Counted from the first letter of the stretch, positions 2,733 through 61,863 are shown. The stretch is 64,000 nt of DNA from an uncultured Fibrobacterota bacterium (GCA_963753345.1 CAVWBU010000015.1:64001-128000), one strand, 5' to 3'. Made by a program: numbers and translations. Notes: generated from the sequence alone by a model not told the origin.

Positions 2733-3207
2733 GGGCGTTCCCCTCCCCCTCGACTTCGCTCGGGGTTGGGCCGGTCTCCCTCCGGGCTCGGCTTCTCGCC
2801 TCGTTGCCGCCTGCCACTAAGGCCCTTCGGGCCGTGGTCGGGCGGCGATGCGCTCTTGCTCACCCTCCGGTCCACCTAACGCGCGGCAACGAAATCTATT
2901 CTGTCAATCATTTCTTCTCGCGCCAGTCTTCAACTCTCAACTTTCAACTATTTTTCTCGGTGCGGCCACAACAATGCATGGTCTTGCACAAAGGGAAAAG
3001 TGAAAGTCACGTGATACCCGAAGAGTGGTATTTGCGCCAGGGGCGACTGGAGGTCGTGCTGGAGCACGATGCTGCCCGGACCCGCCGCAACGCGGCATAG
3101 GGCCGTGGCAGCCCGAGGCCTTGGCCGAGACCGGAAGGAGAACCGGTGCCGAAGGCAGGCGCCCAATTCTTTAACTGGGTTTTTGAGACAGCCTGAACTT
3201 CCCCCGC
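2733..3207. repeat. Structured repeat mosaic: A(-) 2733-2887, linker 2891-2928, TCAAC tandem 2929-2950, B-end fragment, A(+) 3034-3164, D tail 3165-3207
   Basis: Shares gggcgttccc...cctaacgcgcgg and ...ccggaaggagaaccg...ggcgccc blocks with about 15 other loci in the window. Confidence 0.9.
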
Positions 3208-3215
3208 AAAATGAG

Positions 3216-4301
3216 CTACTTCTTGATTTTCGAAGTGGTTCCAACCATAAACTCAACCTTCATCTCCACCGTGTTCGAGAAGAACGAAAGCTTGTCGTCC
3301 GGGTCGCTTCTGTCGGTATTGATATCCTTGTTGAGCACGAACCCCTTTTTTTCCCTGAAAAACCCCAGGTACCGCCCCACATAGCACACAGAAACCTCCA
3401 TACCCGAGGTTTTCGACAATGCGCGCTGGGACGAGATGCCGATTCTCCATCCGCCGCCGTACCCCCAGGCGTAGAAGTTCCTAAGGTTCGCCCTGGCCGC
3501 CACAATCACCGAATCCGGGACGCCGGACCAGGCGACCGAAGTCTGTTTTGACAGATAGGAATACGGCAGGATGTATGCGCCCACGATGACGGACGTGCGG
3601 TCCACGCCTTCTATGCGGAACAACTTTTCGTCAAGGCTGTGCCGATACAGCATGCCCACGTTGAAGGTGTAGGAATCGAGCGATTGCCGGTAGTTGACTT
3701 TCCCGGACGCGGTGTCGCGCTGGAGCGTGGCCTGGAGCACCTTGCCGATGTAACAGAAAGAGCCTTCGAACGACACCGAACTCTTGCGGTAGACGAGCGG
3801 GGTCCAGGAGACCGATATCGGGAAAAGGATGTTGTAGGTGTTCACGGGTTCCGTCACCGACATGCCGAACGTGTCCGGATTCATGGGCAGAATCTTCTGC
3901 ACCGAATCCGGGAGGTTGCTCTGCCAGTCGTTGAAAATGTCGAACGATCCCAGCGCCCAGCCGATGCCGAATCCTATCGAAGGAATCTTGAGGAAAAGGC
4001 TGGCGGTGTCTTCAACCGCAACAGCGGTTTTCCTCTGGAGCTGAAGCGCTGTCCTTTTCAGAAGAGAGTCGTTTGACAATGACGCCGGGTTCTTCTGCGT
4101 TGAATCGGAAACCTTAACAGCGGCAGGAGCGGTGGATGTGTCCTTTGACTGAAGAGATGCGGGCCTTTTGAGAGTGTCCGCAGGCGAGGGATTGACTTTG
4201 AGGGAATCACGGTCTGCGCAATACGCCTGCGTTGTACAGACAAAAGCCGCCGCAATGACGATCATCAACAAGGATTGATGAAAAGATGGCGAGTGGTTCA
4301 T
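3216..4301 (-). CDS. Hypothetical exported/outer-membrane protein
   Basis: ATG overlaps the tsaB stop (ATGA); hydrophobic signal-like N-terminus, low-complexity linker, beta-strand-rich C-terminal part. Confidence 0.65.
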   Translation of the reverse strand: MNHSPSFHQSLLMIVIAAAFVCTTQAYCADRDSLKVNPSPADTLKRPASLQSKDTSTAPAAVKVSDSTQKNPASLSNDSLLKRTALQLQRKTAVAVEDTASLFLKIPSIGFGIGWALGSFDIFNDWQSNLPDSVQKILPMNPDTFGMSVTEPVNTYNILFPISVSWTPLVYRKSSVSFEGSFCYIGKVLQATLQRDTASGKVNYRQSLDSYTFNVGMLYRHSLDEKLFRIEGVDRTSVIVGAYILPYSYLSKQTSVAWSGVPDSVIVAARANLRNFYAWGYGGGWRIGISSQRALSKTSGMEVSVCYVGRYLGFFREKKGFVLNKDINTDRSDPDDKLSFFSNTVEMKVEFMVGTTSKIKK

Positions 4302-4999
4302 GGTGTCGGTACCGTCCGTTTCTTTTCTGCCTGCACCTCGCTGAGGTAGCGCGGCACGATGTTTTCCGCAGTCGTCCATCCGGCGCTGTCGCCGTTGCGG
4401 AGGCCGGCAATCATGGCGCAAGAGAGCCCGCGCTGGAGCGGGAATCGTTCAACGGGAAATACCGAAGTCCTGCCTTTCAGAAAATCGAATGCCGTGCTTC
4501 TTGCATAGCCGAGCGTGTCCGTGATCACAATGTCGTTATTGGAAACGGCCTGCTTGAATTCCTCGACCGTGGAGAGAACGTCGTCCGAGAGGCGCGCCAT
4601 TGCGCCGCCGCATTTTTCGAACCTGGCCGAGAACACCTGGCCGTTGCGCGCGTCCGACGCGCACACGATGAGGGCGTCACGCGCGTGCCAGGCTCCCGCC
4701 ATGCTTTCCAGAGAGGAAACCGGCAGCACGCGGCCGTCGCGGCCGAAAAGAAAACCCTTGAGAAAAGCAATGCCGATGCGCAGGCCGGTAAACGAACCGG
4801 GCCCCACCGCGATTGCGGCATGAGAAATTTCCGAGGGTTTCACCTTGTTCGCGGCCAGAAGATAATCCACTGCCTGGCTGATGTGCTCGGCGTGCGAATT
4901 GCGCAGGTATCTCGACACCGCCATCACGGGACAGCCGTCCGAGGCGAGGCCGATGCCGAGCTCGATGGACGATGTGTCGATGCCGAGCGTGTGATTCAT
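4298..4999 (-). CDS. tsaB: tRNA threonylcarbamoyladenosine biosynthesis protein TsaB
   Basis: LGIDTSS, HAE and GPGSFTGLRIG motifs. Confidence 0.93.
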   Translation of the reverse strand: MNHTLGIDTSSIELGIGLASDGCPVMAVSRYLRNSHAEHISQAVDYLLAANKVKPSEISHAAIAVGPGSFTGLRIGIAFLKGFLFGRDGRVLPVSSLESMAGAWHARDALIVCASDARNGQVFSARFEKCGGAMARLSDDVLSTVEEFKQAVSNNDIVITDTLGYARSTAFDFLKGRTSVFPVERFPLQRGLSCAMIAGLRNGDSAGWTTAENIVPRYLSEVQAEKKRTVPTP

Positions 5000-5007
5000 G
5001 CTGGGTG

Positions 5008-8486: not shown

Positions 8487-9110
8487 GGGCGTTCCCCCAT
8501 GTAGAGCTGTATCAAAATAATGCAAATTTGGTGGGGGAGGTGTCCCCCTGGCCCCAAGTCTCCTCGCCACGCTCCGCGCGTCTGCGGGGTCTTGGGGCAC
8601 ACCCCCTCGTGGGTAGCCCCCTATGGAGTTACTTTGCGAGAAAGAAGCCTAGGCTGCGGGGGCACCAAGAAACATTGTGGAATGATGATCGCAGAATGCG
8701 GAATAAGGCAGAAGAATGTCATTGCGAGCCCCTCGTCAGAGCTCGGGATAAACTCCGCGAAGCACCGTAACTAGGATCGCATACAATCCTAAAGGAGTAG
8801 CTGCGAAGCGAATCTACAGTTGATTCTTCAGAATATGAATTCCTTTTGACCTCTCCCCCAACCCCTCTCCGGACAGAGAGGAGAGTGACAGATGCGAAAG
8901 CCGTGCTGAGAGTTGGGCTGTGTCTTATGCGCCGCGCCAGGCCGGACTGCAAGGTGCGCCAGAGCGCATTGCCGGCCGACCCCGCCGCCAGGCATAGGGG
9001 CGGTTCGGCAACGAGGCCTTGGCCGAGCCTGGAAGGAGGGCCGCCGCCGTCTTCGGCGGGGCGCCCAAATCTTCTCTTGAGTTTTGAGACCGGCTGTGCT
9101 TCTCCCCCGA
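8487..9110. repeat. Structured repeat mosaic: A-end remnant 8487-8498, B 8530-8673, GTCATTGCGAG element 8717-8766, CCCCTCTCC element 8849-8885, A(+) 8931-9066, D tail 9067-9110
   Basis: Each block matches other copies in the window. Confidence 0.85.
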
Positions 9111-12112: not shown

Positions 12113-12149
12113 TTTGACAAAGCATAAATATCAAGAAGAAGAAAGACTT

Positions 12150-12476
12150 GGGCGTTCCCCAAAAGGAAAGGCGCATTCATATGTGCCTTTCCTTTTGGGT
12201 CGGTCTCCCTCCGGGCTCGGCTGTTCGCCTCGTTGCCGCCTGTCCCAACCGCCTTCGGCTAGGGATCAGGCGGCAATGCGCTCCAGCGCACCCTCCGGTC
12301 CACCTAACGCGCGGGCAGAGTGTGGGGTGCCGATGACCTTCCAATTCTGATTGACAAAGTATACTTTTTCAGGCGGAGCGCAGGCGTTGCGCCTCGCGCA
12401 GGTTGCGGCGCTTTTACAAACTTCTTAACTGCTCAACTTCTCAACCTCTCAACTTTCTTCTCGCGGTGCCCCCCCA
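12150..12476. repeat. Structured repeat mosaic: A(-) 12150-12316, C fragment ~12351-12411, CAAC tandem 12417-12456, GGTGCCCCC end
   Basis: gggcgttcccc...ggtccacctaacgcgcgg; gcgttgcgcctcgcgca is shared with the copy at 18752. Confidence 0.85.
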
Positions 12477-12538
12477 GATAGTCTTTTTTTGCTCTACTAG
12501 ATACTCTTTCTCTTTTTCGAAATCTCCCAACAAAATTC

Positions 12539-12580
12539 TTGACACGTTACCCCTATATGTGTATATTATACACGTCACCC
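12539..12580 (+). promoter_or_regulatory. Sigma70-type lexA promoter with overlapping palindrome (candidate LexA operator)
   Basis: TTGACA(12539)-N17-TATATT(12562); palindrome GTGTATA-T-TATACAC at 12559-12573; direct repeat ACACGTYACCC. Confidence 0.6.
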
Positions 12581-12615
12581 ATGTATACTATCCACCCACC
12601 CAATGGAACCACGAA

Positions 12616-13293
12616 ATGACATCTGCCATGAATATCAGCAGTGCAGGCGAGGGCGATAAAACCGTCACCGAAACTGCGCTCACAAAGAAGCAGAAAATGG
12701 TGCTCGACTTCATCGAGTCGCGGTACGTGGAGGCGGGGAGAGCGCCCACGTACGAAGAAATCGCGGCAAAGTTCAAATGGCGCTCGGCAAATTCCGTCAC
12801 CAACCATGTCGCTGCGCTGCGAGAAAAGGGCTACATCGCCGAGACAGGAGGCAAAAACCGTCACGTGACGCCCACGCGCATCGTGCGCATGCATCCGCGG
12901 CAGACCACGCGAATTCCTCTTATCGGCAGCATTGCGGCCGGCGCGCCCATCGAGGCGATAGAAAATGTTGAGACCTGGTTCGAATGGGACGCGCTCGGCG
13001 TCACCAACGAGCGGGGAGACAAGTTCGCGTTGCGCGTAAAGGGCAATTCCATGGTCAACCGCGGCATCCGCAACGGTGACATCGTGGTGGTGCAGCGCCA
13101 GTCGTTCGTCACGCGGCGCGACGTTGCCGCGGTGCGCGTGGGCAGCGAAGTCACGCTCAAGTATGTAAAGCAGGAGGCAAACAGCATAAGGCTCATACCC
13201 GACAACGACTTCGTTGCGCCATTGACCGTCGCGCCGACAGATGATTTCGAGGTTATGGGGAAGGTGGTAAGGCTATTTAGAGAGGATATATAA
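12616..13293 (+). CDS. lexA: SOS repressor LexA
   Basis: wHTH (LTKKQ...PTYEEIA...HVAALREKGYI), Ala-Gly cleavage site IAAG, catalytic Ser (GNSM) and Lys (TLK). Start could also be 12628. Confidence 0.93.
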   Translation: MTSAMNISSAGEGDKTVTETALTKKQKMVLDFIESRYVEAGRAPTYEEIAAKFKWRSANSVTNHVAALREKGYIAETGGKNRHVTPTRIVRMHPRQTTRIPLIGSIAAGAPIEAIENVETWFEWDALGVTNERGDKFALRVKGNSMVNRGIRNGDIVVVQRQSFVTRRDVAAVRVGSEVTLKYVKQEANSIRLIPDNDFVAPLTVAPTDDFEVMGKVVRLFREDI

Positions 13294-13312
13294 CTAAAAT
13301 AATAAATAAGAT

Positions 13313-13746
13313 GGGCGTTCCCTTGGCAGAGGCGCAAGATTTTTCGCCTCTGCCAAGGGCGGCCCTCGCTCCGGTCTCGGCCTTCGGCCTCGGGCGGCCT
13401 GCCACAAAGGCCCTGCGGGCCGTGGTCAGGCCGCACCGTGCTCCAGCGCGGCCTCCGTTCCGGCCTAACGCGGCGCAGAGGTTTGTTGGCCTGTCTGTTT
13501 TATTCTGCATCCGCCCTAACTTTTTGCAGGTTTTTAAACAGATTGGCGCGAGATGTGATATTGACAGAATAGACTTCAGTTGCCGCGCGTTAGGTGGACT
13601 GGAGGGTGAGCAAGAGCGAATTGCCGGCCGACCCCGGCCGAAGGCCCTCGGGGCGGTCCGGCAACGAGGCGAAAGCCGAGCCCGGAAGGAGACCGACCCC
13701 AGGTAGGAGGCGAACGGCCGTGCGCCTCTACTTGGGGAAACGTCCC
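13313..13746. repeat. Back-to-back A(-) 13313-13476, linker 13541-13577, A(+) 13582-13746
   Basis: Two divergent module A copies between lexA and dnaE2. Confidence 0.9.
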
Positions 13747-13781
13747 AACTCTTATAATAATAATAATGAAAAAACATAAAC

Positions 13782-16700
13782 ATGAACTTCATCCACCTCC
13801 ACACCCACTCCGAATACTCCTTCCACGCCGGGGTCCCTAAAGTAAAGGAACTCGTGGCCGCGGCAAGGGCGCACGGCATGGCCGCGCTGGCCCTCACCGA
13901 CACAAACCGCATGAGCGGGCTCATCGATTTTTACGTTTTGTGCCTTGAAAACGGCATAAAGCCCATCCTCGGGGTTGAACTCACCGATCCGAAACACGAC
14001 TGTGACAACATAGTGGTCGCTCGCAAAGAACAAAAACGGCTACGCAGACATGTGCGAGGTCATCACGCAGCGCCAGCTGCACCCGGAGACATTTGCATTC
14101 GGCAGGGTGTTTACAAAGGAATATCCTGACCTTTTTCTTCTTACGTCTTCGCCGCGCCTGCTGCGCGAGCTGGCCGCAACGCCGAATGCAAGGAACCTGT
14201 ACGCGGAGATGCTCCATCTCGATGCTGCCTCACGCGATGAGGCAAAGAAACTCTGCTTTATTGCGCAGCAGTTCGGCGTTCCGCTTGTTGCGGCCAACAA
14301 CGTCCATTTTCTTGCAAAGCAGGACTGGGAGACGCACCGGATACTTGCGCGCCATAGGCCATGTGTTCAACGCTGTCGCGGCTTAAACCGGAAGAGGTGA
14401 TGGCCGACGCCGCGTATTTCTGCACGGCTGAAGAAATGTGCGAACGGTTTCCCGGCCACGTCGAAGCGCTTGTCAATACCGCCAGGATCGCAGACCAGTG
14501 CAGGGCCGATCTGGAACTGGGCAACTGGATCTTCCCCAGAATTTCCGTGCCCGACGGTTTTACACCCGAGCAGTACCTGGAGAAGGTCGCGCGAGACGGG
14601 CTCGAACGCAGATACGGAGCCACACCTTCGTACCCAAAGGCAAAAGAGATTCAGGAAAAGGAGCTCGCGGTTATCAACAAACTCGGGTTTTCCTCATACT
14701 TCCTTATGGTAAAACAGGTGCGCGACTGGGCAAACAGCCGCTATAGCGGAGGGTTTAGAAAACCTGACGACTGCACTCTCATGCGCGGGTCTGCCGCAAA
14801 CAGCATCACGTTTTACAACATAGGTGCAAGCGATTTGGACCCGGTGCGTTACAACCTCTACTTCGAGCGGTTTCTCAACGAAGAACGGGCAAGCCCGCCC
14901 GATGCCGATCTCGATTTCGGCTGGGACGAGCGCGACGCGGCGTTCGACTACTTTGTCAATACGTGGGGCCGCGACCGCGTGGCCGTGATCTGCACGGTCA
15001 ACCACATGAAGCGCCGCGCCGCATTCCGCGAGGTCGCCAAAGTTTTCGGCTTTAGCGAGGAACAGGTGACCGGTCTTCTGGAGCACCGCGTTCTGCCCGA
15101 GCACGACCCGGACATCCAGCGCATACTCGCGTACGCAAACAGGGTGCGCGGCAAGCCGCGGTTCCTGGGCCAGCACCCGGGCGGCATCGTCGTGACCAAC
15201 GGCCCGGTATGGCGGCACGTGGCGTGCGAATATTCCGGCGGCGTCAAGAACAGGGTCGTCACGCAGATCGACATGCATTCCGGTATCGACGAGCTCGGGC
15301 TCATCAAGTTCGACATCCTCGGCAACGGCAGCCTTTCGGTGCTGCGCGACACGCTGTTCCAGATAGAGAAACAGGGCCACGCCGATCCCCGCGTATGGGA
15401 CGCGCAGTACGTGCAGAACGATCCTGCGGTGCTCGACATGATCGAAAATGGCCGCACGCGCGGCATTTTCTACATCGAGTCCCCTGCGCAGATGAAGCTC
15501 AACAGGCAGGCTCTGGCGCGCAGCTTCGAGGAGATCGGCATCACGTCGAGCGCGGTGCGGCCGGCAGGAGCACAGTACACAAAAGTGTTTGTGGAACGCC
15601 ACCGCAAAATGAAGCAGGGGATTGTCGATTGGAAATTTGTACACCCGTCGCTTGAGCCCATATTGTCCGAAACGCACGACTGTCTGGTATACCAGGAAGA
15701 TGTGGTGAAGATCTGCAGGGAGATCGCGGGGATGAACTTTAAGCGCGCCGACCGCGTGCGTAAGATGATGAACAGCCAGCACGACGGCGCGCCCGACGAT
15801 TACGAGGCGGTCGCCAGGGAATTCATGGAGGGCTGCATGGCGCATAAGGGATTGTCGCGGCCGCAGGCCGGCGAATTGTGGGAGCGGGTGAGCTCGTTCG
15901 TGGGGTTTTCCTTCTGTAAATCGCACAGCCTTAGCTATGCCATACTGTCGTTCAAGTGCGCCTTTCTCAAGGCGCATTATCCGGCGCAGTTCATGGCGTC
16001 GGTGATTTCCAACCTGCACGGATTTTACTCTACCGACACCTACCTCAACGAGGCACGGCGGCTGGGCATCACCATAAACCCCGTCCACATCAACGCGAGC
16101 AGGGTCGAAAGCCGCGGCAAGGGGCGGTTTCTTACCGTGGGACTCATGCACGTCAAGGGTATGAGCGTCCGCACCCTGCGGTCAATTATTGACGAACGCG
16201 CTGGAAACGGCCCGTTCCGCGGCCTTCTCGATTTCATCCGGCGCACCACCACGGGAAAAAGCGAGATCGAGAAGCTTGTGCGGGCCGGATGCTTCGACGG
16301 GTTCAACCTGAACCGGCCCGAGCTTCTCGCCCTGCTCGACGCAGCGTACGGCGGAGCGTGCGGCGCGCGCGATGCGCGCAGCGCAGAGAGTGACCTGTTC
16401 GGCGGCCTGCGGCCGTCCGATATGGATCTGCACCCCGGCCTTTCCGATTATTCCCTTACGCGCAAATGTCTTGACGAACTGGAACTTCTCGGGTTCATGC
16501 TGTCGGGCAACATCCTCGACATCCTGGATCTGCACCCCGAGGCGCGAAATGCGGTGCTGTGCGGCGATGTCGCTAAGCACGCAGGCCGCGGGGTGAAAGT
16601 GTTCGGGTGGCCCATCACGTCGCGCGTGCATCCGGTGCCGGGCAGGGGAGACATGAAGTTCATCACCGTGGAGGACAAGTCGGGCTGCGCCGACGTCGTG

Positions 16701-16928
16701 CTGTGGCCCGACGTTTACAAACAGTACGCCGATGTCACGCTGAGGCCGGGCCCGTTCGCCATTTCCGGTTATGTCAAGGAACAATTCGGCGTCCCGTCCG
16801 TGTTCGCGCAATCGATACGCGGGGTGGAGTGGTCGCCGTCCATCGTGGATTTCGAGCTGGCGAGCAAGAGATTGATGAAGTCTTACAATGAGGAATTTGT
16901 ATACAGAGATGCAATTAAGGCAGCATAG
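13782..16928 (+). CDS. dnaE2: Error-prone DNA polymerase III alpha (DnaE2-type), with three +1 frameshifts at ~14018, 14347 and 14360
   Basis: PHP domain HLHTHSEYS, RGSAANS signature, PDADLDF and GLIKFDILG catalytic motifs. Removing three single bases restores IVVLAKNKNGYADMCE and HRILRAIGMCSTL. Confidence 0.88.
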
Positions 16929-16945
16929 ATATAAATAAAATTTTA

Positions 16946-17251
16946 GTGGGGGAAGGCTCCCCCTCGCTTCGGCTCGGCGCTCGTATTTTCAAAGTTCATC
17001 TCATTCCGCGCCGGTCCTACGCTACCCCCTCGTGGGTAGCCCCCTAGAGAGTTGATTGGCAAGAATGAAACTTGGACTGCGGGGGCACCAAGAAAGAGAG
17101 TTGACAGTTGAAAGTTGGAGGCTGGCGCAAGAAATACCAATTAACTGAATAAATTACTCCTGCCGTGCGTTAGGCAGCCCGAGGCCGAAGGCCGAGACCG
17201 GAAGGACGGCCGACCCGACCCCGAGCTTAGTCGAGGGGAAGGGGAACGCCC
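16946..17251. repeat. Mosaic: B 16946-17098, GTTGA tandem 17100-17118, internally deleted A(+) 17162-17251
   Basis: gtgggggaagg...ccccctcgtgggtagcccc...gggggcacc, then gcgttaggcagcccgagg...gggaacgccc. Confidence 0.88.
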
Positions 17252-17283
17252 TGCTTTAAGCTTTAATTGCAGAAAAAGAACAA

Positions 17284-18489
17284 ATGAACTGGTATATAAG
17301 CATTTACATTCAGGATTTTCCGGCCCAAGCATACGCGGCGTATCACCCAGAAATAGTGGGCATGCCGTATGTGATGGCCCGTCAGCGGGCCGACAGCCAC
17401 AAGAGCGTGGTGACGTCGCTGTCGCCCGAGGCGCAGGCCAGGGGGATCTATCACGGGTTTTCGGTTGCGCGCCTTAAAGAACGCTTCGGCGACGTTCGTA
17501 TTGTACAGGAAGACCCATCGCTCGCGGCCGCAATCGCCGGCGATCTCGGCGCGGTACTGGCCGCGTTCTCGCCCGATGTGCGTGTGGACAAACGCGGAAA
17601 CGCTCTTGTCAACGTGAGCGGCATGCAGCGGCTTCTGGCGGCGCGGTTTGGAACGCTGCCCGGAGAAATCCGCGCCGCTGTGAAATCGGTACTGGCCCTG
17701 CGCGCCTGCGCATGCGGCGCGGCCGCGTCGCCGTACGTGGCGTTTATGGCCGCCCGCGCAGCCGCGCCCGACGGCGTTGTCGTATGCGAACAGGGCGCCG
17801 AGGCGGCCATGCTCGCGCCGGTCGCGGCAGCGGCCCTGCCCGGCCTTTCCGATGGCGTAAAGCAGCGGCTCGCCGATTACAATATACGCACGGTCGCCGA
17901 CATTCAACGGCTTTCCGAGGGTTTTTGTGCGGCCAGGTTCGGCGAGGAAGGCGTACGGCTGCACGCCATGGCGCACGGCATGTTCCTCGAAGCTCGGCCG
18001 CTGTCCGCCCCTCCTGACATCGAATACGGCCGCACGCTCGCGCGCGACGAGAACGACGCTGCCGCACTGAAGAGCCATATACGATACATTGCAGACAGGC
18101 TCGCGTTCGAGCTGCACGCGGCCCAAAAGCAGGCCGGCAGCGTGGCGTTTACGGTGCGCTATTCCGACAACAAGGCCGTGCGGCGCTCCATGAGGCTTTT
18201 GTCGCCCACGGCAGATTTCACCACGCTGTACGAATGCTGCTGCCGGCTGTTTGCGCAGGCCTGCGACCGTCGCATCGCGGTGCGGCGGCTGTCGGCGTCG
18301 GCGCGGCCGTTTGACGAACGCGAATGCCAGCTCGATCTGTTCGACAACGCGGCGCAGGTGAAGCAGGAGAACATCGGCAGGAGCATAGGGGAGATACGGG
18401 TGAGGATGGGGTTTGGGATTGTAAGAAATGGCAATATAGAATACAATGCCGTCGGGGGAGAGGTACAGCCTGTCTCAAAACCCAGTTGA
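17284..18489 (+). CDS. ImuB-like, probably catalytically inactive Y-family polymerase
   Basis: Y-family/IMS layout (SPEAQARGI, LPGL, little-finger VRYSD, QLDLF clamp motif), but the catalytic HIDMDAF and SxDE motifs are replaced by IYIQDFP and VDKRG. Confidence 0.8.
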   Translation: MNWYISIYIQDFPAQAYAAYHPEIVGMPYVMARQRADSHKSVVTSLSPEAQARGIYHGFSVARLKERFGDVRIVQEDPSLAAAIAGDLGAVLAAFSPDVRVDKRGNALVNVSGMQRLLAARFGTLPGEIRAAVKSVLALRACACGAAASPYVAFMAARAAAPDGVVVCEQGAEAAMLAPVAAAALPGLSDGVKQRLADYNIRTVADIQRLSEGFCAARFGEEGVRLHAMAHGMFLEARPLSAPPDIEYGRTLARDENDAAALKSHIRYIADRLAFELHAAQKQAGSVAFTVRYSDNKAVRRSMRLLSPTADFTTLYECCCRLFAQACDRRIAVRRLSASARPFDERECQLDLFDNAAQVKQENIGRSIGEIRVRMGFGIVRNGNIEYNAVGGEVQPVSKPS

Positions 18490-18863
18490 AGAGCTGGGCG
18501 CCTGCCTTCGGCACCGGTTCTCCTTCCGGTCTCGGCCGCAGGCCTCGGGCTGCCTGCCACGAAGGCCCTGCGGGCCGTGGTCAGGCAGCACCGCGCTTTG
18601 GCGCGGCCTCCAGTCGCCCCTGGCGCGCGGCAGAAGCGCATTACCGCAATTGTACTTGACGCTAGCGAAAGAGGGACAGTAAATTTTATCGCCGCAGAGC
18701 GGCATACCATAGCGAAGGCGTTGCGGAAACGTGACGCGCGCAATGCGCAAGCGTTGCGCCTCGCGCACGTTTCTGCTGGAAAGGGTGTGGGTGCAGATCG
18801 CCGCACGCCGTGTCGGCGGGCGGAAGCTGCACCCAGGGGAAACCGCGCAGCGGTGTCCCCACC
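18451..18863. repeat. Mosaic: D tail 18451-18495, A(-) 18496-18631, C(+) 18656-18863
   Basis: Same architecture as 54477-54916. The D tail overlaps the last codons of the ImuB-like gene. Confidence 0.88.
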
Positions 18864-21082: not shown

Positions 21083-21121
21083 AATAACAAATTATACATG
21101 ACGCGGTTAAGAAAAAAAAAG

Positions 21122-21385
21122 AGTTGAAGCGTTGAAAAGTTGAAACGTTGAAAAGTTCTAAATTAAAAATAAAACGTCCCCCCTTGATTTATAGCGAATG
21201 CCGATTGGCGCGAGAAAAACTAATTGTCTAAAAGGGAGGCTATTGCCGCGCGCCAGGCAGGATCGGAAGGTGAGCTAAAGCGAATCGCTGGCCGACCCTC
21301 GCCGTGGGCGCTAAGGGCGGTCCAGCAACGAGGCCGTAGGCCGAGCCTGGAGGGAGGGCCGCCGCCGCGTAGCGGCGGGGCGCCC
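21122..21385 (+). repeat. Mosaic: (GTTGAANN)4 tandem, linker gattggcgcgaga, A(+) 21245-21385
   Basis: Matches other copies in the window. Confidence 0.88.
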
Positions 21386-21411
21386 ATATTCTTTTACATG
21401 AAAGGGAAATG

Positions 21412-25589: not shown

Positions 25590-25596
25590 ATAGGAT

Positions 25597-26005
25597 GGGC
25601 GTTTCCCTCCCCCTCGACAAAGCTCGGGGTCGGGTCGGCCCTCCCTCCGGTCTCGGCCTTCGGCCTCGGGCTGCCACGGCCCTATGGCCCACAGGGCCGG
25701 GTCCGGGCAGCATCCCGCTTTGGCGGGACCTCCGGTCCTGCCTAACGCATGCGCATGTGACAAGTGCTGACCCGAATTTTCGCAAATGCTTGACATGCGA
25801 CAGTTGACAAAAGTGCGTGCATCCTAATTCACTATTGCCGCGAAGCGGCATTCCATTGAGGTTGCGTTGCGAAGGGGCGACGCCACGCGAGCGTAAGTCG
25901 AGCGTACTTGGCGCGCCCCTTTGCTGGAGGGGGTAGCGGAAGACACCGGAGGCCGAAGGACGAGGAGGCTGGAGCGAGGGGGAAACGCAAAGCGGTGCCC
26001 CCACC
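25597..26005. repeat. Mosaic: A(-) 25597-25754, C(+) 25803-26005
   Basis: The C copy closely resembles 54711-54916. Confidence 0.9.
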
Positions 26006-26347
26006 AAGAACTTCAATTCAAATCTTGGCTTTGTTATTAATTTCTTTTTAATGCCTTTCTTAAATTTTTCTCACATTCCCGGCTTGACTCCTATGCCCGA
26101 AAACATTATTTTGGTACAGGCTTAAGAGGGGGCCAAAACACAAAATGTTGTACTGCAAAGAGAGCGTGCATCCAAAATGTGGGGTGCCGTCGGGCACCTG
26201 GAAAGGTGCAGGGATTTAGAAAATGCGGAAAAACGCCGGGCATATTTTCAATCTTCTCCTACCGTGCCGGGCCTTTTTCTCTTCTCTCCTCCACGGAGGC
26301 GTATGGCCTCCGGGAGTCCCGGTTTCAACAAGCCGGATTTTCCCGAA

Positions 26348-30835: not shown

Positions 30836-30850
30836 GGAAGACATTGTCGA

Positions 30851-31177: not shown

Positions 31178-31242
31178 AATGATTTTATTAATTGTTTATT
31201 TATTGCAAACTTCACCAATATATTAAAAACGGGAGCCTCACC

Positions 31243-32850: not shown

Positions 32851-32863
32851 AGATAAGATTCTT

Positions 32864-34744: not shown

Positions 34745-34761
34745 TTTCAGGAGTGTTTTTT

Positions 34762-35183
34762 GTGGGGGAAGGTTCCCCCTCGCTCCGGCCCGTCGCTCCG
34801 TCAAATCTCTGCTCGTTGGTCCTTACGCGCCGGTCCTCCGCTACCCCCTCCTGGGTAGCCGCCTTGACAAAGCAGCTGCGAGATCAAACATTGTTGTGGC
34901 GGCACCCACGAAGAGCAATGGTAAAAGAGTTGAGAAGTTGAGTAGTTGATAACTGGTAGTTGATTGATCTCTTGGGTATTTCGATTGGCGTGAGAAGAAG
35001 TGGTTGACTGACAAGACTCCTTCTGCCGCGCGTTAGGCAGGACTGGAGGTCCCGCTAGAGCGGGATGCCGCCCGGACCCGGCCGCTACTGCGGCATAGGG
35101 CCGAGGCGGCCCGAGGCCGAAGGCCGAGACCGGAAGGACGGCCGACCGGAGCCTGCGTCTTGACGAAGGCTCGGGAAACGCCC
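34762..35183. repeat. Mosaic: B 34762-34916, GTTGA tandem, linker, A(+) 35025-35183
   Basis: Complete B-tandem-linker-A unit. Confidence 0.9.
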
Positions 35184-35199
35184 ACCTTGATGATTTGAA

Positions 35200-37669: not shown

Positions 37670-37916
37670 AGATTTCTAATAACTGTGAAAATCAGCGCGC
37701 GTCTCTTCAATGCCACAAACATGGACACCAACTACAGGTATGTCGCGATTCCACATTCCACCCAAAATGGCTTCTTATCCTACTTATCGCCGATGGCAGT
37801 CATACAGTTGATAACAAAACAATTCATGCGTTCCCTGGAAGCAAGGACAATTGCAAAAGCGGACCCAGCGAAGAAAGTGACAAAGACATGAAGTAAGTAA
37901 GTGCATGGTGCCACCA

Positions 37917-38071
37917 CTCTTCGTGGGTGCCGCCTCAGCGATGTATGGTCTCGCAGCTGCTTTGCCAAGGCGGCTACCCAGGAGGGGGTAGCGGAGGACC
38001 GGCGCGTAAGAACCAACGAGCAGCGATTTGAGGGAGCGATGGGCCGGAGCGAGGGGGAGCCATCCCCCGAC
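37917..38071 (-). repeat. Module B copy, inverted near-twin of 34762-34916
   Basis: Reverse complement aligns end to end with the copy at 34762, with about a dozen substitutions. Confidence 0.92.
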
Positions 38072-39475: not shown

Positions 39476-39491
39476 CGGCGGGTCCACGGGC

Positions 39492-40451: not shown

Positions 40452-40467
40452 ACAATTAGTTTTCTTA

Positions 40468-40983
40468 GTGGGGGAGGTATCCCCCTCGCTCCGGTCCGGT
40501 CGCGCTGTTTGTAAATCACCATCCAGAATGTGCGCGCCCGGTCCTCCGCTACCCCCCTCCTGGGTGGCCCCCAAGTAAGTTTGTTTGCAAGAAAGTTGCT
40601 TCGGTTGGGGGGCACCCACGGAGAGCAGTTGAAAAGAAAAAGCGTTGAAAAGTTGGAAAGCCAATGCCCGAAAACAGGACATGGGAAACCAAGTGTCATT
40701 GCGAGCGCAGCGAAGCAATCACCCTACAACTTTTACCTAAAAGAACCTTGTCTGATTTGCTGCGCATGCCGATTGGCGCAATAAATATGAATTGACAGAA
40801 TAGATTCCCTCTGCCGCGCGCTAGGGGCGACTGGAGGTCCCGCCATAGCGGGATGCCGCCCGGGCCCGCCGCTGCTGCGGCATAGGGCCGGGGCGGGCCC
40901 GAGGCCGCAGGCCGACGACCCTTGGAAGCACCCGAAGGGGTGGACCGGAAGGAGAACCGACCCCGCAAAGCGGGGGAACGCCC
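40468..40983. repeat. Mosaic: B 40468-40626, GTTGA tandem, GTCATTGCGAG element 40694-40720, linker, A(+) 40813-40983
   Basis: Matches other copies; this A carries an extra ccc-gaa-ggg hairpin insertion. Confidence 0.9.
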
Positions 40984-41012
40984 AATTCTTATAACTAAAA
41001 GAAACCAAAATA

Positions 41013-42485
41013 ATGTCATCACCTATTCGCGTCAGATTTGCTCCATCACCCACAGGATACCTCCATGTGGGCGGGGCGAGGACCGCGCTGTTCAATTACC
41101 TTTTTGCAAAGCACAGCGGCGGGACGTTTATTCTCCGGATCGAAGACACCGACCGGTCCCGTTTCGTCGAAGGCGCACTCAGGGAAATCTACGACGGTCC
41201 TGCATGGCTCGGCCTTTCGTGGGACGAGGGGCCGGATGTGGGCGGCAATTTCGGCCCCTATGTCCAATCGGAGCGCCTCGACCTCTATCAGAAATACGCG
41301 GGAGATCTTCTGGACAGGGGTTTGGCCTACCGTTGCTTCTGCACCCCGCAGCGTCTCGAAGAGGTGAGGCGTGACCGCGAAAAGGCAAAGATGCTTACCG
41401 GGTATGATCGGCATTGCCGCGACCTAGACAAAGAGGAAGTCGCAAACAGCCTGAAGGAAGGGAAGAAGTACACGGTCAGGCTTAAGGTTCCCCTGGACAG
41501 AAACATTGTGTTTAGCGACATGATAAGGGGGTCCATAGAATACAAAAGCGATGTGCTCGACGACCTTGTTCTCCTCAAGTCGGACGGGTTTCCCACCTAC
41601 CATCTCGCAAACGTGGTTGACGATCACGAAATGAAAATATCGCATGTGCTGCGCGGCGACGAGTGGATTTCGTCAACGCCGCGCCACATCCTGCTGTACG
41701 AGGCATTCGGATGGACGCCGCCCGCGTTCGCGCACATGCCCGTGATACTCGACCCGTCCGGTGGAAAACTGTCAAAACGCAAGGGCGCGGCGTCGGTGAC
41801 GGATTACCGGAACAGGGGCATCCTGCCGGAGGCGCTGTTCAATTTTCTGGCGCTGCTCGGCTGGTCGCCGGGCGGCGGCGACGAGCGCGAGAAAATGACG
41901 CGCCAGGAAATCATCGAGGCATTCGCGCTCGACAAGATTTCTCCCAAGGCCGCGGTGCTCGACGAAAAGAAGCTCGACTGGATGAACGGACGGTACATGG
42001 CCGAATATCCCGCTGAGCGGCTTGTTGCTGATGTCTGCAGGCTGTGGAAGGAAAAGCAGACCATTGCCCCGGACAGGAGCGAAAGCGACCCGTACCTGCT
42101 CGCCGTGGTGCGAATGTTCAAGGACAGGTCAAAGCGCATTAACGAAATCGCTGATAATTCAGTGTATTTTTTTCACGATCCGGCGACATATGAGGAAAAG
42201 GCAGCCACGAAACATTTCACATTGCAGGCGGCAGAAATTCTGGAAATGTTGGCTGATAAGATAGCTGTGCTTGAACCCTATTCCAAGGATTCGCTTGATG
42301 CTCTTATTCATGCTTGCGCTTCTGATACGGGTTCACAGATAGGAGATCTTATTCATCCGACAAGACTGGCCGTGAGCGGCGTGAGTTTTGGACCGGGGTT
42401 GTTTGAGATGATGGAAACTATAGGTAAAGAAACTGTGGTGAGGAGAATAAGAAAGGCAATTGATAAAATAAGAAAGAAAGATTGA
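41013..42485 (+). CDS. gltX: Glutamate--tRNA ligase
   Basis: RFAPSPTGYLHVGG (HIGH), LRIEDTD and KLSKR motifs. Confidence 0.97.
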   Translation: MSSPIRVRFAPSPTGYLHVGGARTALFNYLFAKHSGGTFILRIEDTDRSRFVEGALREIYDGPAWLGLSWDEGPDVGGNFGPYVQSERLDLYQKYAGDLLDRGLAYRCFCTPQRLEEVRRDREKAKMLTGYDRHCRDLDKEEVANSLKEGKKYTVRLKVPLDRNIVFSDMIRGSIEYKSDVLDDLVLLKSDGFPTYHLANVVDDHEMKISHVLRGDEWISSTPRHILLYEAFGWTPPAFAHMPVILDPSGGKLSKRKGAASVTDYRNRGILPEALFNFLALLGWSPGGGDEREKMTRQEIIEAFALDKISPKAAVLDEKKLDWMNGRYMAEYPAERLVADVCRLWKEKQTIAPDRSESDPYLLAVVRMFKDRSKRINEIADNSVYFFHDPATYEEKAATKHFTLQAAEILEMLADKIAVLEPYSKDSLDALIHACASDTGSQIGDLIHPTRLAVSGVSFGPGLFEMMETIGKETVVRRIRKAIDKIRKKD

Positions 42486-42488
42486 TTT

Positions 42489-42835
42489 GGTGGGGGAAGT
42501 TTCCCCCTGCCTGCGGCCCTACGGTCCTCCGGCACCCCCTCGTGGGTGGCCCCCAAGGAAGTTGATTTGCAAGAAAGATGCCTCGGTTGGGGGGCACCCA
42601 CGAAGAGCGGCTGTAGTTAATAATCAAATGACAAGAGGTTAATTCCCTCTTTGTAAGGAAAGCGGGGAAAACCTTCTGTCCGCGCGTTAGGGGCGACTGG
42701 AGGTCCCGCTGAGGCGGGATGCCGCCCGGACCCGGCCCTGTGGGCCATAGGGCCGTGGCGGCCCGAGGGCGGAGCCCGAGACCGGAAGGAGAACCGACCC
42801 GAGCCCGAGCGCAAGCACGGGCGAGGGGAACGCCC
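42489..42835. repeat. Mosaic: B 42489-42608, A(+) 42679-42835
   Basis: Begins 4 nt after the gltX stop. Confidence 0.9.
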
Positions 42836-42876
42836 AGTCTTTCTTACTATACCAAAAAGGAAAAAGAGAGAACATC

Positions 42877-54357: not shown

Positions 54358-54476
54358 GGGAAGCTCCTGCTATGGTTATTAATTTATGTATGATGTGAAT
54401 TGTTGGCGGAAGTATTTTTGAAAACGTGATAAAATACATGAAAGCGGGATAAAGAGCCTAAGAGGAGAGTATTTAA

Positions 54477-54916
54477 GTGGGGGGAGGTACAGCCTGTCTC
54501 AAAACTCAAGAGAAGATCTGGGCGCCCCGCCGAAGACGGCGTCGGTTCTCCTTCCGGTCTCGGCTAAGGCCTCGGGTTGCCGACGGCCCTAGTCGCCCAC
54601 AGGCGAGGGTCGGGCGGCATCGCGCTCTGGCGCGACCTCCAGTCGCCCCTGGCGCGTGCGCAGACGACCGGAGCTTGATTGAATATTTGCAACTGTTTTT
54701 AGGTAGGATAGTTGACAAAAGCGAATGCACCTTAATTCGCTATCGCCGCGAAGCGGCATACCGCAGAGGTTGCGTTGCGAAGGGGCGACGCCGCGCGAGC
54801 GCAAGTCGAGCGCACCAGACGCGCCCCTTTGCTGGAGGGGGTGTGCCCCGAGACCCCGCAGACCGCAGGGCGAGGAGGCTTGGGGCCAGGGGGAAACGCG
54901 AAGCGGTGCCCCCACC
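54477..54916. repeat. Mosaic: D tail 54477-54519, A(-) 54520-54661, C(+) 54711-54916
   Basis: Same architecture as 18451-18863. Confidence 0.9.
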
Positions 54917-54948
54917 GGAACCTGTATAATTAATGACAAAATACAGAA

Positions 54949-58284: not shown

Positions 58285-58301
58285 AAACAGCAGTAGTTAT
58301 T

Positions 58302-58480
58302 TTGCGCAAAAAATGTTTCTTGACTGAATAGAGTTCCGTTTGCGCGCGTTAGGCGGACTGGAGTGGTGCGCTGGAGCGCAGTACCGCCTGATCCCTAGCC
58401 GAAGGCGGTAGGGACAGAGCGGTACCGAGGCCTTGGCCGAGCCCGGAAGGAGGCCGACCCCGCGAAGCGGGGGAACGCCC
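58302..58480 (+). repeat. Linker fragment plus A(+) 58342-58480, inside the cmk-rpsA spacer
   Basis: ttgactgaatagagttcc...gcgcgcgttaggcgg...ccccgcgaagcgggggaacgccc. Confidence 0.9.
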
Positions 58481-58557
58481 ATGATTATTTTTTTCAGAAT
58501 TTTCATGTTTCTTTAATCATAATCCATTAACCTTAACCCAGTTTTTCAGGAGTATGT

Positions 58558-60399: not shown

Positions 60400-60441
60400 G
60401 GATAAAATTGGGGTAACGGTTGCCGATAACCGACAACAATG

Positions 60442-60473
60442 AACGGCTGCGAATTACCGCAGCCGTTTTTTTT
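60442..60473 (+). terminator. Intrinsic terminator of rpsA
   Basis: aacggctgcg/cgcagccgtt stem followed by a T-run. Confidence 0.8.
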
Positions 60474-60549
60474 GTTTCGAGCGTTGATGCGGCTCCAATC
60501 AAAGAGCGTACAGCAGTGAAGGTGTATGTCTCTCGTTCCGGATGGATTT

Positions 60550-61641
60550 CTAGGGCACAAGGTGCCTGAACGCGCCGTCCCGTGCTCCCACCACGTAAAC
60601 GCCGGACGGAAGGCGCGCCAGGGCAGCGGAAAGGGACGAGTGTGCCGGAACGTCAAGCGCACAGGCAAGTCTGCCGTCCAGATGATAAAGACGCAGGCGC
60701 CCATTGACAATACGCGAAGCAGCATGCACGGCGGGCGTCTGGACCTGCAGACCGATATCCGATGCGGAAACAAACACCGGGGCGGCGACGAGAATATCGT
60801 CGCTGGTCGCGCTCACGCCCAGGGAAACTTTGTACGCGCCCGTGTCTTTTGCAATGAGCACCTGGCCGGTGCCCCCCGAAACAGCAGCCACCGGAATTCC
60901 CTGACAGTACCATTGGTACAGCGACGCTCCAGCCGGCGCCTCAAGCCTGTTCTTCTGCTTAACGATCTTGAGCGTGTCGCCCATGAGCATCCCGTACACT
61001 TTCTGGGCCAATTTCAGGTAGCCGGCGGCGGTCGGATGAATGCCGTCTGCAAACAGACCGGGTTGGCCGCTCATCCAGGTGAAAAGATCAATGAGCGGGA
61101 TTCCTTTTGCGAGAGCAACGGTCTTGATTTTCGGCAAAATCTGGTAGTGAATCACCATGCTGTCGATAAAAAGGATCGAGCTATACGCGGGCAGCGGATA
61201 GCATGCCCACACCTTGGGGTTGGAAGAAATGGCGGCGAACGTGTCGACCATTGCCTCGTAATCGCCCACGAATTCGTCCTGGTGGGACGGCCAGTTGTCA
61301 ACCCCGCCGCTCGACTTTGAATCGTTGGTGCCGAGTTCGATGATCACGATTTTCGGCAGAAAGGCCATGGCGGCGGCAAATTCCGTGACGCCGAATGTCC
61401 AGTAGGGCTTGTTGCCGTTCTTGAGCATGGTGGCGCCGGCAACCCCGCAGTTGAGCACGTTGTATCCGGGACCAAGCATCTGCCCGAGCCGCGCCGGATA
61501 GCTCGCGGTGTCGCGGCCGGCCAGCCCGGTGCCGTCGGTTATGCTGTTGCCCACGCACGAGACATGGATGGTGTCGGCCGCGTGGGCGGAAAAGCCGGCG
61601 CAGAAGAAAAGAAAGGTGAGCGCAATAGCGAAGGTTTTCAT
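60550..61641 (-). CDS. Secreted SGNH/GDSL esterase with T9SS-like tail
   Basis: Signal peptide; GNSIT, LGTND and DGIHP blocks; C-terminal YHLDGR...SGVYVV. Confidence 0.88.
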   Translation of the reverse strand: MKTFAIALTFLFFCAGFSAHAADTIHVSCVGNSITDGTGLAGRDTASYPARLGQMLGPGYNVLNCGVAGATMLKNGNKPYWTFGVTEFAAAMAFLPKIVIIELGTNDSKSSGGVDNWPSHQDEFVGDYEAMVDTFAAISSNPKVWACYPLPAYSSILFIDSMVIHYQILPKIKTVALAKGIPLIDLFTWMSGQPGLFADGIHPTAAGYLKLAQKVYGMLMGDTLKIVKQKNRLEAPAGASLYQWYCQGIPVAAVSGGTGQVLIAKDTGAYKVSLGVSATSDDILVAAPVFVSASDIGLQVQTPAVHAASRIVNGRLRLYHLDGRLACALDVPAHSSLSAALARLPSGVYVVGARDGAFRHLVP

Positions 61642-61863
61642 AGACGAGTTACCTTGTAAATAGTATAACAAGAAACCGGCTTGGGTGCATGAGATTTTTT
61701 CTATGCCTTGGCTGAGCTTGATATTTTTTTCAAAGGAAAGGGGAACGCCCAATTTTTTTATTATTCTTTTATCCTTCTCTCGTACTTCCTCATAATTCCC
61801 TAACCAAGAAATACTATTTTAGAAAGCTCGCCAACCATGCACTGTCATCGATCGGAGGCGTTT

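Follow-up and report, generated by a model that had tools for sequence, protein, structure and literature searches.

BOX elements of Streptococcus pneumoniae are modular intergenic repeats of the form boxA-boxB(n)-boxC, and the REP and BIME elements of E. coli are high-copy, structured extragenic mosaic repeats located mainly downstream of genes. Here we describe a repeat family of comparable build from an uncultured Fibrobacterota bacterium, analysed in a 64,000-nucleotide (nt) stretch of its draft genome (GCA_963753345.1 CAVWBU010000015.1:64001-128000; G000:C15:64001-128000 in our numbering, and called the window throughout) and in the genome as a whole. The repeats are intergenic mosaics of two modules, A and B, and the DNA that borders their outer ends is altered in composition: on the strand presented, sequence to the left of a mosaic is poor in C and sequence to the right is poor in G, and this halo reaches into the codons of neighbouring genes. 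An earlier note on the window had drawn attention to this pattern. The observation is confirmed here, and the halo is stronger genome-wide than in the window.

The family resembles BOX elements in being modular, intergenic and structured, with variable short internal units (in this case an A-(GTTGAAAN)x3-5-B arrangement) and a few hundred copies. The sequences of the two families are unrelated and, to our knowledge, no flanking compositional halo has been described for BOX elements. The units of REP/BIME are imperfect palindromes of 20-40 nt in alternating orientation, whereas the modules described here are multi-stem structures of ~170-180 nt which do occur as pairs of reversed B and forward B but also as co-oriented A-B composites. 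REP/BIME elements furthermore have an associated RAYT gene, encoding a Y1 transposase. No such gene was found here, the Y1 (RAYT-type) family PF01797 giving no match in the 94% complete genome G000 in a search that detected it in control genomes and that left other transposase families outside its scope.

REP elements have also been connected with transcription termination by Rho. Rho sites have been described as comprising at least 70-80 nt of C-rich, G-poor RNA, and the program RhoTermPredict scans 78 nt for an excess of C over G (PMC6407284). In E. coli, Rho utilisation (rut) sites sit immediately downstream of protective stem-loops and the C/G ratio is higher downstream of REPs (PMC6061677), and the same source (Dar & Sorek 2018) refers to Peters 2012 for REPs at Rho-dependent transcript ends. 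REP325 has been described as a Rho-dependent terminator of partial effect that is also an mRNA stabiliser (bioRxiv 10.64898/2026.03.23.713779).

Architecture and distribution of the repeats

G000 is a 4.5 Mb draft genome of 55 contigs and ~56% GC, and its closest named genomes are metagenome bins labelled Fibrobacter sp. and Chitinivibrionales (77-78% identity over a 552-amino-acid (aa) protein termed pyrG). The order of parts in a mosaic is module A, three to five GTTGAAAN octamers, a TTGACnGAATAGA word and module B. Module A (~180 nt) opens with a GGGGGA...TCCCCC hairpin and module B (~170 nt) closes with ...GGGGAACGCCC. Profile searches with nhmmer identified 279 copies of A and 418 copies of B in G000, evenly split between the strands, and a broader mask of intergenic DNA repeated at least five times comprised 184 kb in 673 mosaics. 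As 3580 of the 113609 bases covered by the 697 A and B matches fall in called genes, the family is of high copy number and confined to intergenic DNA. Two module ends face outward in mosaics, the 5' end of A (A5) and the 3' end of B (B3), in the arrangement A...B or reversed B...forward B. Unique DNA nearly always adjoins these two ends and seldom the remaining module ends. A5 is not an inverted copy of B3, although mosaics of reversed B and forward B do have inverted ends. Both modules fold as multi-stem structures, with compensatory double changes in 15/36 and 10/29 predicted pairs. Rfam 15 gave zero matches at gathering score over the window and a single chance-level match (E=0.61) in the segment 40400-41050. 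In contigs from four public runs (Logan), the contigs break at mosaics and no empty sites were seen.

Five congeners, ~80-90% identical to G000, were available for comparison (G001, G002, G003, G004 and G005); at this level of identity synonymous sites are near saturation. The family is present in G001, G002, G004 and G005, while G003 (99% complete, 45% GC) is essentially without it (12 first-look candidates and one weak match). In G001, the closest relative (85-92% identity over matched syntenic stretches), other module combinations were found at the same intergenic sites, for example an A-type mosaic where G000 has reversed B and forward B (G001:C520 and C484 compared with window positions 2925-3197 and 12369-13756). 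Module content therefore turns over at fixed sites. In G004 the region downstream of the ortholog of the gene termed carB (L002) contains an array of GTTGAAAN-type octamers and, upstream of the pyrG ortholog, a B-end-like ...GGCGCCCAATTTG word, with no A or B module detectable at this carB-pyrG site. This arrangement could be either a reduced or an ancestral form of the mosaic.

A mirrored compositional halo at two types of element end

Every flank was scored on the strand that runs 5' to 3' into the element (the toward strand), the opposite strand being called the outward strand, and C3 and G3 denote the frequencies of C and G at third codon positions. Genes were called by a simple caller based on open reading frames (ORFs) and codon usage (3599 genes in G000, with approximate start codons). 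After exclusion of genes with a coding score <20, without a stop codon, <450 nt long or <300 nt from a contig end, 2653 gene ends were available, of which 538 are repeat-adjacent (repeat at most 100 nt past the stop codon) and 2041 repeat-free (none within 300 nt); the 74 intermediate ends were excluded.

At the A5 and B3 outer ends (566 flanks) toward-strand C falls from ~0.28 to 0.13-0.15 over ~60 nt on both sides. Across all 1322 flanks of the 673 mosaics it falls from 0.27 to 0.17, again on both sides, with G constant at ~0.28. The GC skew at 11-60 nt is 0.27-0.32 at the A5/B3 outer ends, 0.11-0.15 at other ends of A/B mosaics (322 flanks) and 0.06-0.09 at the ends of other repeat families (434 flanks), the background being ~0.04-0.05. 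Inner module ends with a unique flank (36 and 22) have no halo, and ordinary GC-rich hairpins past 147 repeat-free gene ends show just a faint trend in the same direction.

The effect on coding sequence is pronounced. C3 over the last 20 codons is 0.188 at the repeat-adjacent gene ends compared to 0.303 at the repeat-free ones (p=1.5e-69). At 4-fold degenerate sites in the last 10 codons of repeat-adjacent genes C is 0.148 and G 0.501, compared to 0.404 and 0.389 in gene interiors, and in two-fold pyrimidine codons of these tails C/(C+T) is 0.35 compared to 0.73 with G/(A+G) unchanged. C is also lost at first and second codon positions, with an increase in Lys and Glu and a decrease in Ala, Ser, Thr, Pro and His. 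Normal composition is regained ~30 codons inward from the stop codon, and tail C3 is ~0.19 irrespective of the codon bias of the gene. On the other side, in the 147 genes that start within 100 nt of an element, sense G3 over codons 2-10 is 0.17 compared to 0.25 in 2379 controls, and the DNA upstream of these gene starts has G of 0.14-0.18 compared to 0.23-0.28 in controls. A loss of Shine-Dalgarno sites from genes behind elements was also considered and found no support, such motifs being found in 48/147 (33%) of these genes and 864/2379 (36%) of the controls.

In genes pointing toward the element third-position C falls from 0.40-0.41 to 0.13, and in genes pointing away third-position toward-strand C (that is, sense G) falls from 0.32-0.33 to 0.16-0.20. 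The nucleotide profiles at B3 and A5 ends are near-identical for the two orientations, so that the skew tracks position relative to the element and not the direction of transcription. The halo is equal across all gene arrangements, including divergent genes (88 flanks, C of 0.146/0.139 at 11-60 nt), and is the same at origin-proximal and origin-distal flanks (281 each), which rules out replication-fork stalling as a one-sided cause. The skew is thus mirrored and anchored at element ends, in agreement with the earlier description, and it is independent of gene and replication direction and found in coding and non-coding DNA alike. Element-free gene ends show only a weak version of it genome-wide (2041 ends), so that neither of the two outcomes named in the earlier note as refuting it came about. 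Repeat-free gene ends do lose C3 in the last 5-10 codons, both in G000 (0.24-0.29 vs 0.39) and in G003 (0.17-0.23 vs 0.28), with G3 flat or slightly up, and this is a general effect at gene ends.

A strengthening of the halo with the age of the copy was considered and rejected, as no correlation with copy score was seen (253 A ends, 312 B ends); copy score may not measure age because the structure is conserved. A search of the halos for a Chi-like or other specific motif found enrichment only of promoter-like words (TTGACA, outward TATATT, TATTAT) and purine runs (GAAGAAG).

Extent and anchoring of the zone

Reading outward from the element, a T-rich stretch of ~20 nt with weak conservation comes first (0.3-0.5 bits over its initial 10 nt and 0.16-0.33 over the next 10), T peaking at 0.42-0.53 at both end types after an offset of 3-10 nt. 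Beyond 20 nt there is no positional conservation (at most 0.07 bits at B3 ends and 0.11 at A5 ends). Outward G is 0.11-0.18 up to ~70 nt and 0.22-0.24 by 100-110 nt. The zone length, determined as a change-point for each flank, is unimodal with a median of 64 nt and an interquartile range of 40-92. Where the spacer on the gene-start side exceeds 110 nt, G amounts to 0.13-0.16 within 70 nt of the element, to 0.20 at 71-110 nt and to 0.25 farther out, and the adjoining gene is of normal composition; here the anchor of the zone is clearly the element. The gene-end profile approximates to the element anchor multiplied by the general C3 dip of all gene ends, a dip also present in G003, and the affected tails are those within ~45 nt of the element end. 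Anchoring at the stop codon was rejected on these grounds, the product of element anchor and general dip fitting roughly and the gene-start side being clearly element-anchored. The possibility that the flanks form an extended closing stem or long inverted repeat was also rejected, since real left/right pairs from 654 mosaics fold like permuted pairs (-28.1 vs -27.9 kcal/mol, p=0.95).

The halo accompanies the element in related genomes

The comparison with G003 drew on ~455 kb sampled from that genome. In 28 ortholog pairs that are repeat-adjacent in G000, the GC3 skew over the last 30 codons is +0.53, +0.25 and +0.17 in G000, and the G003 tails, at +0.09, -0.26 and -0.11, have no halo. G003 has 45% GC compared to 56% in G000 and G004, and a third-position C of 0.28 compared to 0.39; across the genus, the load of elements may be related to GC content.

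G004, which matches G000 in GC content, provided 278 ortholog pairs, with repeats and orthologs taken from 864 kb and 14 mixed-class pairs set aside. In the 44 pairs with an element only in G000, C3 over the last 20 codons is 0.188 in G000 compared to 0.283 in G004 (p=1.3e-5). In the 192 pairs with an element in neither genome the values are 0.322 and 0.320 (p=0.82), and in the 21 pairs with an element in both 0.188 and 0.231 (p=0.075). The pairs with an element only in G004, at seven too few to be informative, gave 0.243 and 0.243 (p=1.0). The halo is present at the 31 outer ends of G004 itself. On the gene-start side, 16 pairs with an element in G000 only lend weak support (G of 0.201 vs 0.231, p=0.049), the G004 orthologs also being G-poor at codons 2-10. 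Alignments of carB and pyrG, together with Pfam domains that reach the C-terminus, show that the tails are orthologous coding sequence and are not borne by the element. As element-free orthologs are near normal and the tails are orthologous, the zone accompanies the element and most probably arises in situ.

An explanation that requires no change in place is that the elements insert into sequence that is already skewed, or that the zone is an unalignable outer part of the element. The lack of any relation between halo strength and copy divergence and the weak conservation of the first ~20 nt would fit this, as would the fact that element-free G004 orthologs keep some skew (C3 over the last 10 codons 0.207 vs 0.272). 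It is nevertheless contradicted by tails that overlap the zone and encode the same protein ends in both genomes, by the near-normal C3 of element-free orthologs and by the lack of positional conservation beyond 20 nt, and we regard it as the least probable of the explanations discussed here. Because the skew is mirrored, anchored at the element and tied to its presence, it appears that something local at the elements alters neighbouring housekeeping genes.

Base spectrum and mutational explanations

The earlier note proposed that the elements are hotspots of double-strand breaks at which 5'-to-3' resection exposes the toward strand and cytosine deamination accumulates C>T changes. The geometry of the halo is as this predicts, C being lost on both sides from the strand with its 3' end at the element, and DinB-like, ImuB-like and DnaE2-like polymerases are encoded in the window. 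The spectrum is not. Deamination-type skews usually pair an excess of G over C with an excess of T over A, and resection by helicase-nucleases extends over kilobases. Across the 1322 flanks T does not exceed A on the toward strand, non-coding spacers gain A and a little G on this strand rather than T, and at 4-fold sites in repeat-adjacent tails G, A and T rise roughly in proportion, T least. In tails that have an element in G000 but not in G004, the net third-position changes are C>G 89:31, C>T 76:44 and C>A 36:25, and at first and second positions C>A 60:25, although with third positions ~48% different these figures describe a new equilibrium and not the path to it. C is therefore lost from the toward strand without the matching gain of T that deamination would leave, and the length of the zone (~64 nt, unimodal) and its confinement to two end types of one family, with inner module ends and other repeat families lacking it, do not fit resection. 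A UDG (uracil-DNA glycosylase) family gene is present in G000. From assumed deamination rates of single-stranded DNA, an exposure of ~5 s per locus per generation would be needed, which would imply about two breaks per genome per generation over more than 600 loci.

Strand-coordinated mutation clusters tied to resection at breaks have been described in yeast (PMC6786661, PMC3521656), and deamination followed by uracil excision and translesion bypass can yield C>G there as well as C>T (PMC11230362), and both observations speak for the proposal. Such clusters, known from yeast and cancer genomes, resemble the halo in that C is lost from one strand and the affected strand changes at a central site. 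They are, however, kilobase-scale bursts dominated by C>T or C>G and arising in single events, whereas the halo has a fixed composition over ~64 nt in which T is not in excess and variant density is not clearly raised. Replication- or transcription-associated GC skew likewise has G in excess of C on one strand; the halo differs in that A at least equals T and in being local, mirrored at each element and independent of inferred fork and gene direction. The proposal of local mutagenesis of neighbouring genes thus holds in so far as there is element-linked local change at orthologous loci, but its chain of breakage, resection and deamination is unsupported and we consider it very unlikely.

A different mutational origin would be a scar of element-end processing, in which nicks or cuts recur at A5 and B3 ends, some tens of bases of the outward strand are excised and synthesised anew, and biased or error-prone synthesis opposite template C gradually strips G from the new strand. 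This would explain by a single mechanism the uniformity of the halo over gene orientation, arrangement, replication direction and coding or non-coding context, as well as its anchoring at the element end, its restriction to two end types and its presence only with the element. Elements differ between G000 and G004 (44 in G000 only, 7 in G004 only, 21 in both), which together with the differing module content of G001 indicates that the loci are dynamic, and, roughly estimated from assumed error rates of polymerases, a single nick at each end every 10^3 generations could be enough. The strain variants offer less encouragement. The G000 assembly includes ~200 kb of second-copy contigs with 89-99.9% identity to larger contigs (e.g. 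C55 and window 24901-33132), which points to strain heterogeneity, and these served as a small polymorphism set. In ~106 kb of such alignments variant density is 0.046 at 1-30 nt from a mosaic (mostly non-coding), 0.025 at 31-60 nt, 0.013 at 61-100 nt and 0.017 beyond 400 nt; there is thus no clear excess beyond the first 30 nt, although little would be expected at compositional equilibrium and the objection is correspondingly weak. The usual error opposite C, insertion of A, predicts an outward gain of A, whereas T and C are gained; the halo does not depend on copy divergence; strongly codon-biased genes do not resist it; and the search for the Y1 transposase family and the public contigs, described above, gave neither an enzyme of that family nor an empty site. 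On balance we find this origin less likely than not, but it is the main rival of the reading favoured below.

A possible Rho-loading-like tract

We tentatively favour the reading that the zone is a selected, G-poor, pyrimidine-rich tract, resembling a Rho-loading site, for RNA leaving the element. In such a scheme RNA exiting the structured element would carry a G-poor, C/U-rich tract, free of structure and matching in length and composition what Rho loads on, and RNA entering the element would be C-poor, so that Rho would be kept from loading until the protective structure had been transcribed. One DNA pattern would then work for both directions of transcription, which would account for the mirror symmetry. 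The zone is imposed on any sequence that adjoins the end, among it the last 20-25 or first 20-30 codons of neighbouring genes, in which C (or G) gives way to any base that the codon tolerates.

The composition and length of the zone are rut-like, and this, like its geometry, its specificity to the two end types and its occurrence only with the element in orthologous comparisons, is shown here, whereas any involvement of RNA, Rho or selection is an inference. In outward 78-nt windows at the 566 A5/B3 ends the C/G ratio is >1 in 87%, >1.5 in 59% and >2 in 37%, compared to 47%, 10% and 2% of random genome windows of the same length, and there are 13.0 YC dinucleotides per outward window compared to 10.7 at random. 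C exceeds G outward over a zone with the median length given above, although C itself does not exceed the genome mean there. G000 encodes Rho. Consistent with this reading, the halo is confined to end types that have a terminal hairpin and an outward T-rich stretch, there is no single mutational path (at third positions C gives way to G, T and A, at first and second positions to A), and on the outward strand non-coding flanks gain T and some C, as would be expected of a pyrimidine-rich tract. Within this reading, the halo is best regarded as a strong, two-sided analogue of E. coli REP-associated termini. In the E. coli case too a protective stem-loop is followed by DNA with C in excess of G, read as a Rho-loading site, and a dual role as terminator and stabiliser has been proposed (PMC6061677; bioRxiv 10.64898/2026.03.23.713779). 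The enrichment in E. coli is described in the source as mild, whereas here the skew is strong (G of ~0.13-0.17, with more than a third of windows above a ratio of 2). The halo also differs in being two-sided, in extending 20-25 codons into neighbouring genes and altering their amino-acid content, and in being known from sequence alone.

Several observations weigh against a role for Rho. The halo loses no strength where no called gene is directed into the element (the 88 divergent flanks) and is as strong, in tandem arrangements, on the tail of the upstream gene. At such loci the Rho logic would need transcripts initiated within the element or running through it, or else a further rationale, for instance an unstructured leader, and uniformity over all contexts is more simply explained by one process at the DNA level. 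In absolute terms there is no outward enrichment of C (0.27), and G alone is depleted. A general Rho-type tract of C over G after repeat-free genes was looked for and not seen, the 3' flanks of such genes lacking it in both G000 and G003 and showing a slight one, late in the flank, in G004. Together with the faint trend at the 147 ordinary hairpins, this means that the use of Rho would have to be specific to the elements. A simple terminator and promoter scan of 30000-43500 found no excess over shuffled sequence (14 terminator sites compared to 16.2 in shuffles, only one of them at a B3 end).

A related explanation dispenses with Rho and supposes that three-letter flanks beside a GC-rich element prevent mispairing of tails and leaders or the stalling of ribosomes. 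The elements are indeed strongly structured, as the compensatory changes noted above attest, leaders downstream of them are G-poor and the affected tails lie within ~45 nt of the element end. Insulation of this kind would give no consistent reason for the avoidance of C upstream and G downstream, the terminal hairpin of B3 having its C-run first, and the G-poor zone also exists in non-coding DNA that lies over 110 nt upstream of start codons, where it stops short of the gene. The flanks of a mosaic are no more complementary to one another than permuted pairs and the frequency of Shine-Dalgarno-like motifs is unchanged, as reported above. This explanation is thus an unlikely one.

The window

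The mosaics of the window and their flanking zones are listed here by window coordinates (+, - or no single strand).

2717..3205, no single strand: mosaic of reversed B (2723-2907), reversed 8-mers and forward B (3033-3172), between convergent genes
8528..9108, +: mosaic of A (8524-8682) and B (8923-9073), between divergent genes
8424-8493: low-C zone left of the 8528..9108 mosaic, within the start of minus-strand gene 7382-8515
12138..12477, -: mosaic of reversed B (12142-12316), reversed 8-mer array (12419-12455) and a degenerate A remnant to ~12515
12469..12573, +: G-poor zone right of the 12138..12477 mosaic, part degenerate A and part lexA promoter region (12477-12540, G=0.078)
13235..13321, +: C-poor zone, last lexA codons (13258-13293, C=0.028)
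13308..13753, no single strand: mosaic of reversed B (13304-13481) and forward B (13561-13722)
13736..13830, +: G-poor zone right of the 13308..13753 mosaic, into the first codons of a PHP-domain ORF (G=0.06)
16883..16958, +: C-poor zone, end of the DnaE2-like Pol III alpha ORF (16865-16928, C=0.109)
16931..17257, +: mosaic of A (16938-17113), 8-mers and a short B (17178-17258)
18365..18465, +: C-poor zone, end of the ImuB-like (IMS family) gene (C=0.085)
18491..18653, -: mosaic, reversed B
21106..21399, +: mosaic of an 8-mer array (21122-21157) and B (21224-21395), with low-C 21081-21178 at left
25592..26014, -: mosaic containing reversed B (25588-25750), with G-poor 25998-26098 at right (G=0.067)
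30847..31190, +: mosaic of A, 8-mers and B, after the 1095-aa gene termed carB (tail 30746-30835, C=0.133)
32799..32879, +: C-poor zone, end of the 552-aa gene termed pyrG
32855..33298, +: mosaic of A, 8-mer array (32985-33025) and B (33084-33266)
34754..35187, +: mosaic of A (34754-34925) and B (35004-35190), abutting the 3' end of the minus-strand YchF-like gene
37911..38069, -: mosaic, reversed A, with G-poor 38070-38136 at right (G=0.094)
40460..40994, +: mosaic of A, 8-mers and B, between the TPR gene and gltX
Flanks of the 40460..40994 mosaic: TPR gene tail 40400-40451 (C=0.096) and gltX leader 40984-41065 (G=0.098)
42378..42506, +: C-poor zone, end of gltX (C3 of the last 20 codons 0.00)
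42486..42846, +: mosaic of A and B (42672-42844)
54470..54919, -: mosaic containing reversed B (54513-54658), with low-C 54356-54492 at left
58301..58501, +: mosaic, B (58320-58490), with low-C 58241-58304 at left and G-poor 58473-58551 at right (G=0.062)
61741..61838, +: G-free intergenic region between divergent genes (G=0.029, T=0.49), no repeat detectable beside it

The nearly G-free sequence reported to the right of mosaics was reproduced in seven named segments (G of 0.03-0.10 compared to a window mean of 0.296), and windows of 64 nt with G of at most 0.08 make up only 0.27% of all in the window. Likewise, seven C-poor gene ends to the left of mosaics have C of 0.03-0.19 compared to a mean of 0.277. 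Regions of 64 nt with at most 8% C or 8% G mostly lie just left or just right of mosaics, respectively, or on the internal 8-mer arrays. The exceptions are a low-C region at 26353-26437, which sits ~340 nt to the right of a mosaic, the G-free region at 61741-61838 and the segment 12477-12540, which is partly a degenerate reversed A module. For gene ends in the window the contrast is modest, C3 over the last 20 codons being 0.197 at 17 repeat-adjacent ends and 0.319 at 18 repeat-free ends (Mann-Whitney p=0.037). Several repeat-adjacent ends show no depletion, among them 1658-2683 (0.40) and 21412-22224 (0.45), and some repeat-free ends are depleted (rpsA at 0.15, 7382-8515 at 0.10 and 43649-44590 at 0.05). 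Of the gene ends put forward earlier as controls without elements, rpsA is thus C-poor itself and nifJ has a repeat 83 nt past its stop codon.

Pfam matches support the identification of lexA, the DnaE2-like Pol III alpha, the ImuB-like and DinB-like IMS polymerases, the TPR gene, gltX, a glnS-like gene and ychF; the names carA, carB, pyrG, rpsA, nifJ, cmk, bioB and ddl are those of the earlier note. The Peptidase_S24 domain match of LexA reaches residue 237 of 244, which indicates that the C-poor end of lexA is genuine coding sequence, and in GltX the Anticodon_2 domain match reaches residue 483 of 490.

The lexA, dnaE2-like and imuB-like genes form a cluster interspersed with mosaics. Upstream of lexA, at 12541-12602, a promoter-like TTGACA-17 nt-TATATT overlaps two copies of a 22-nt unit with a TGTATA..TATACA palindrome, and these units look like SOS boxes. 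The DnaE2-like Pol III alpha is encoded in three overlapping frames, 13782-14129 (PHP domain), 14050-14400 and 14361-16928 (remaining domains), a split for which two frameshifts, a pseudogene and errors in the assembly are all possible causes. Likewise, the coding sequence of a glnS-like class I tRNA synthetase falls into two overlapping ORFs within 42877-44590, of which 42877-43983 covers catalytic domain positions 1-199 and 43649-44590 covers positions 228-313 and the anticodon-binding domains. This indicates a frameshift, and the ORF called at 43090-43659 within this gene shows that the caller was wrong at least once. The lowest GC content of the window lies within 36500-38000 (0.42 at 37001-38000) and ends at a reversed A module; this region contains only a weak ORF (37070-37669) without a Pfam match.

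Implications

The repeat sets the base content, the codon choice and in part the amino acids of the last 20-25 codons in about one fifth of genes (538/2653 ends), and the cause may be either selection on transcripts or local mutation. If selection is responsible, signals for termination or insulation can override codon bias within neighbouring genes, and the family would provide a strong and countable model of cooperation between a REP-like element and Rho in a poorly known lineage. If mutation is responsible, the repeats can act as fixed local mutators of core genes. A scar of end processing would in that case amount to natural site-directed local mutagenesis over ~60 nt on each side at ~570 sites, recoding the ends of several hundred housekeeping genes and in part altering their amino acids, and would be the first bacterial genome-wide equilibrium footprint of the processing of element ends. 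With either cause, the zone confounds analyses of codon usage, selection and gene ends, and it marks the true functional ends of the elements.

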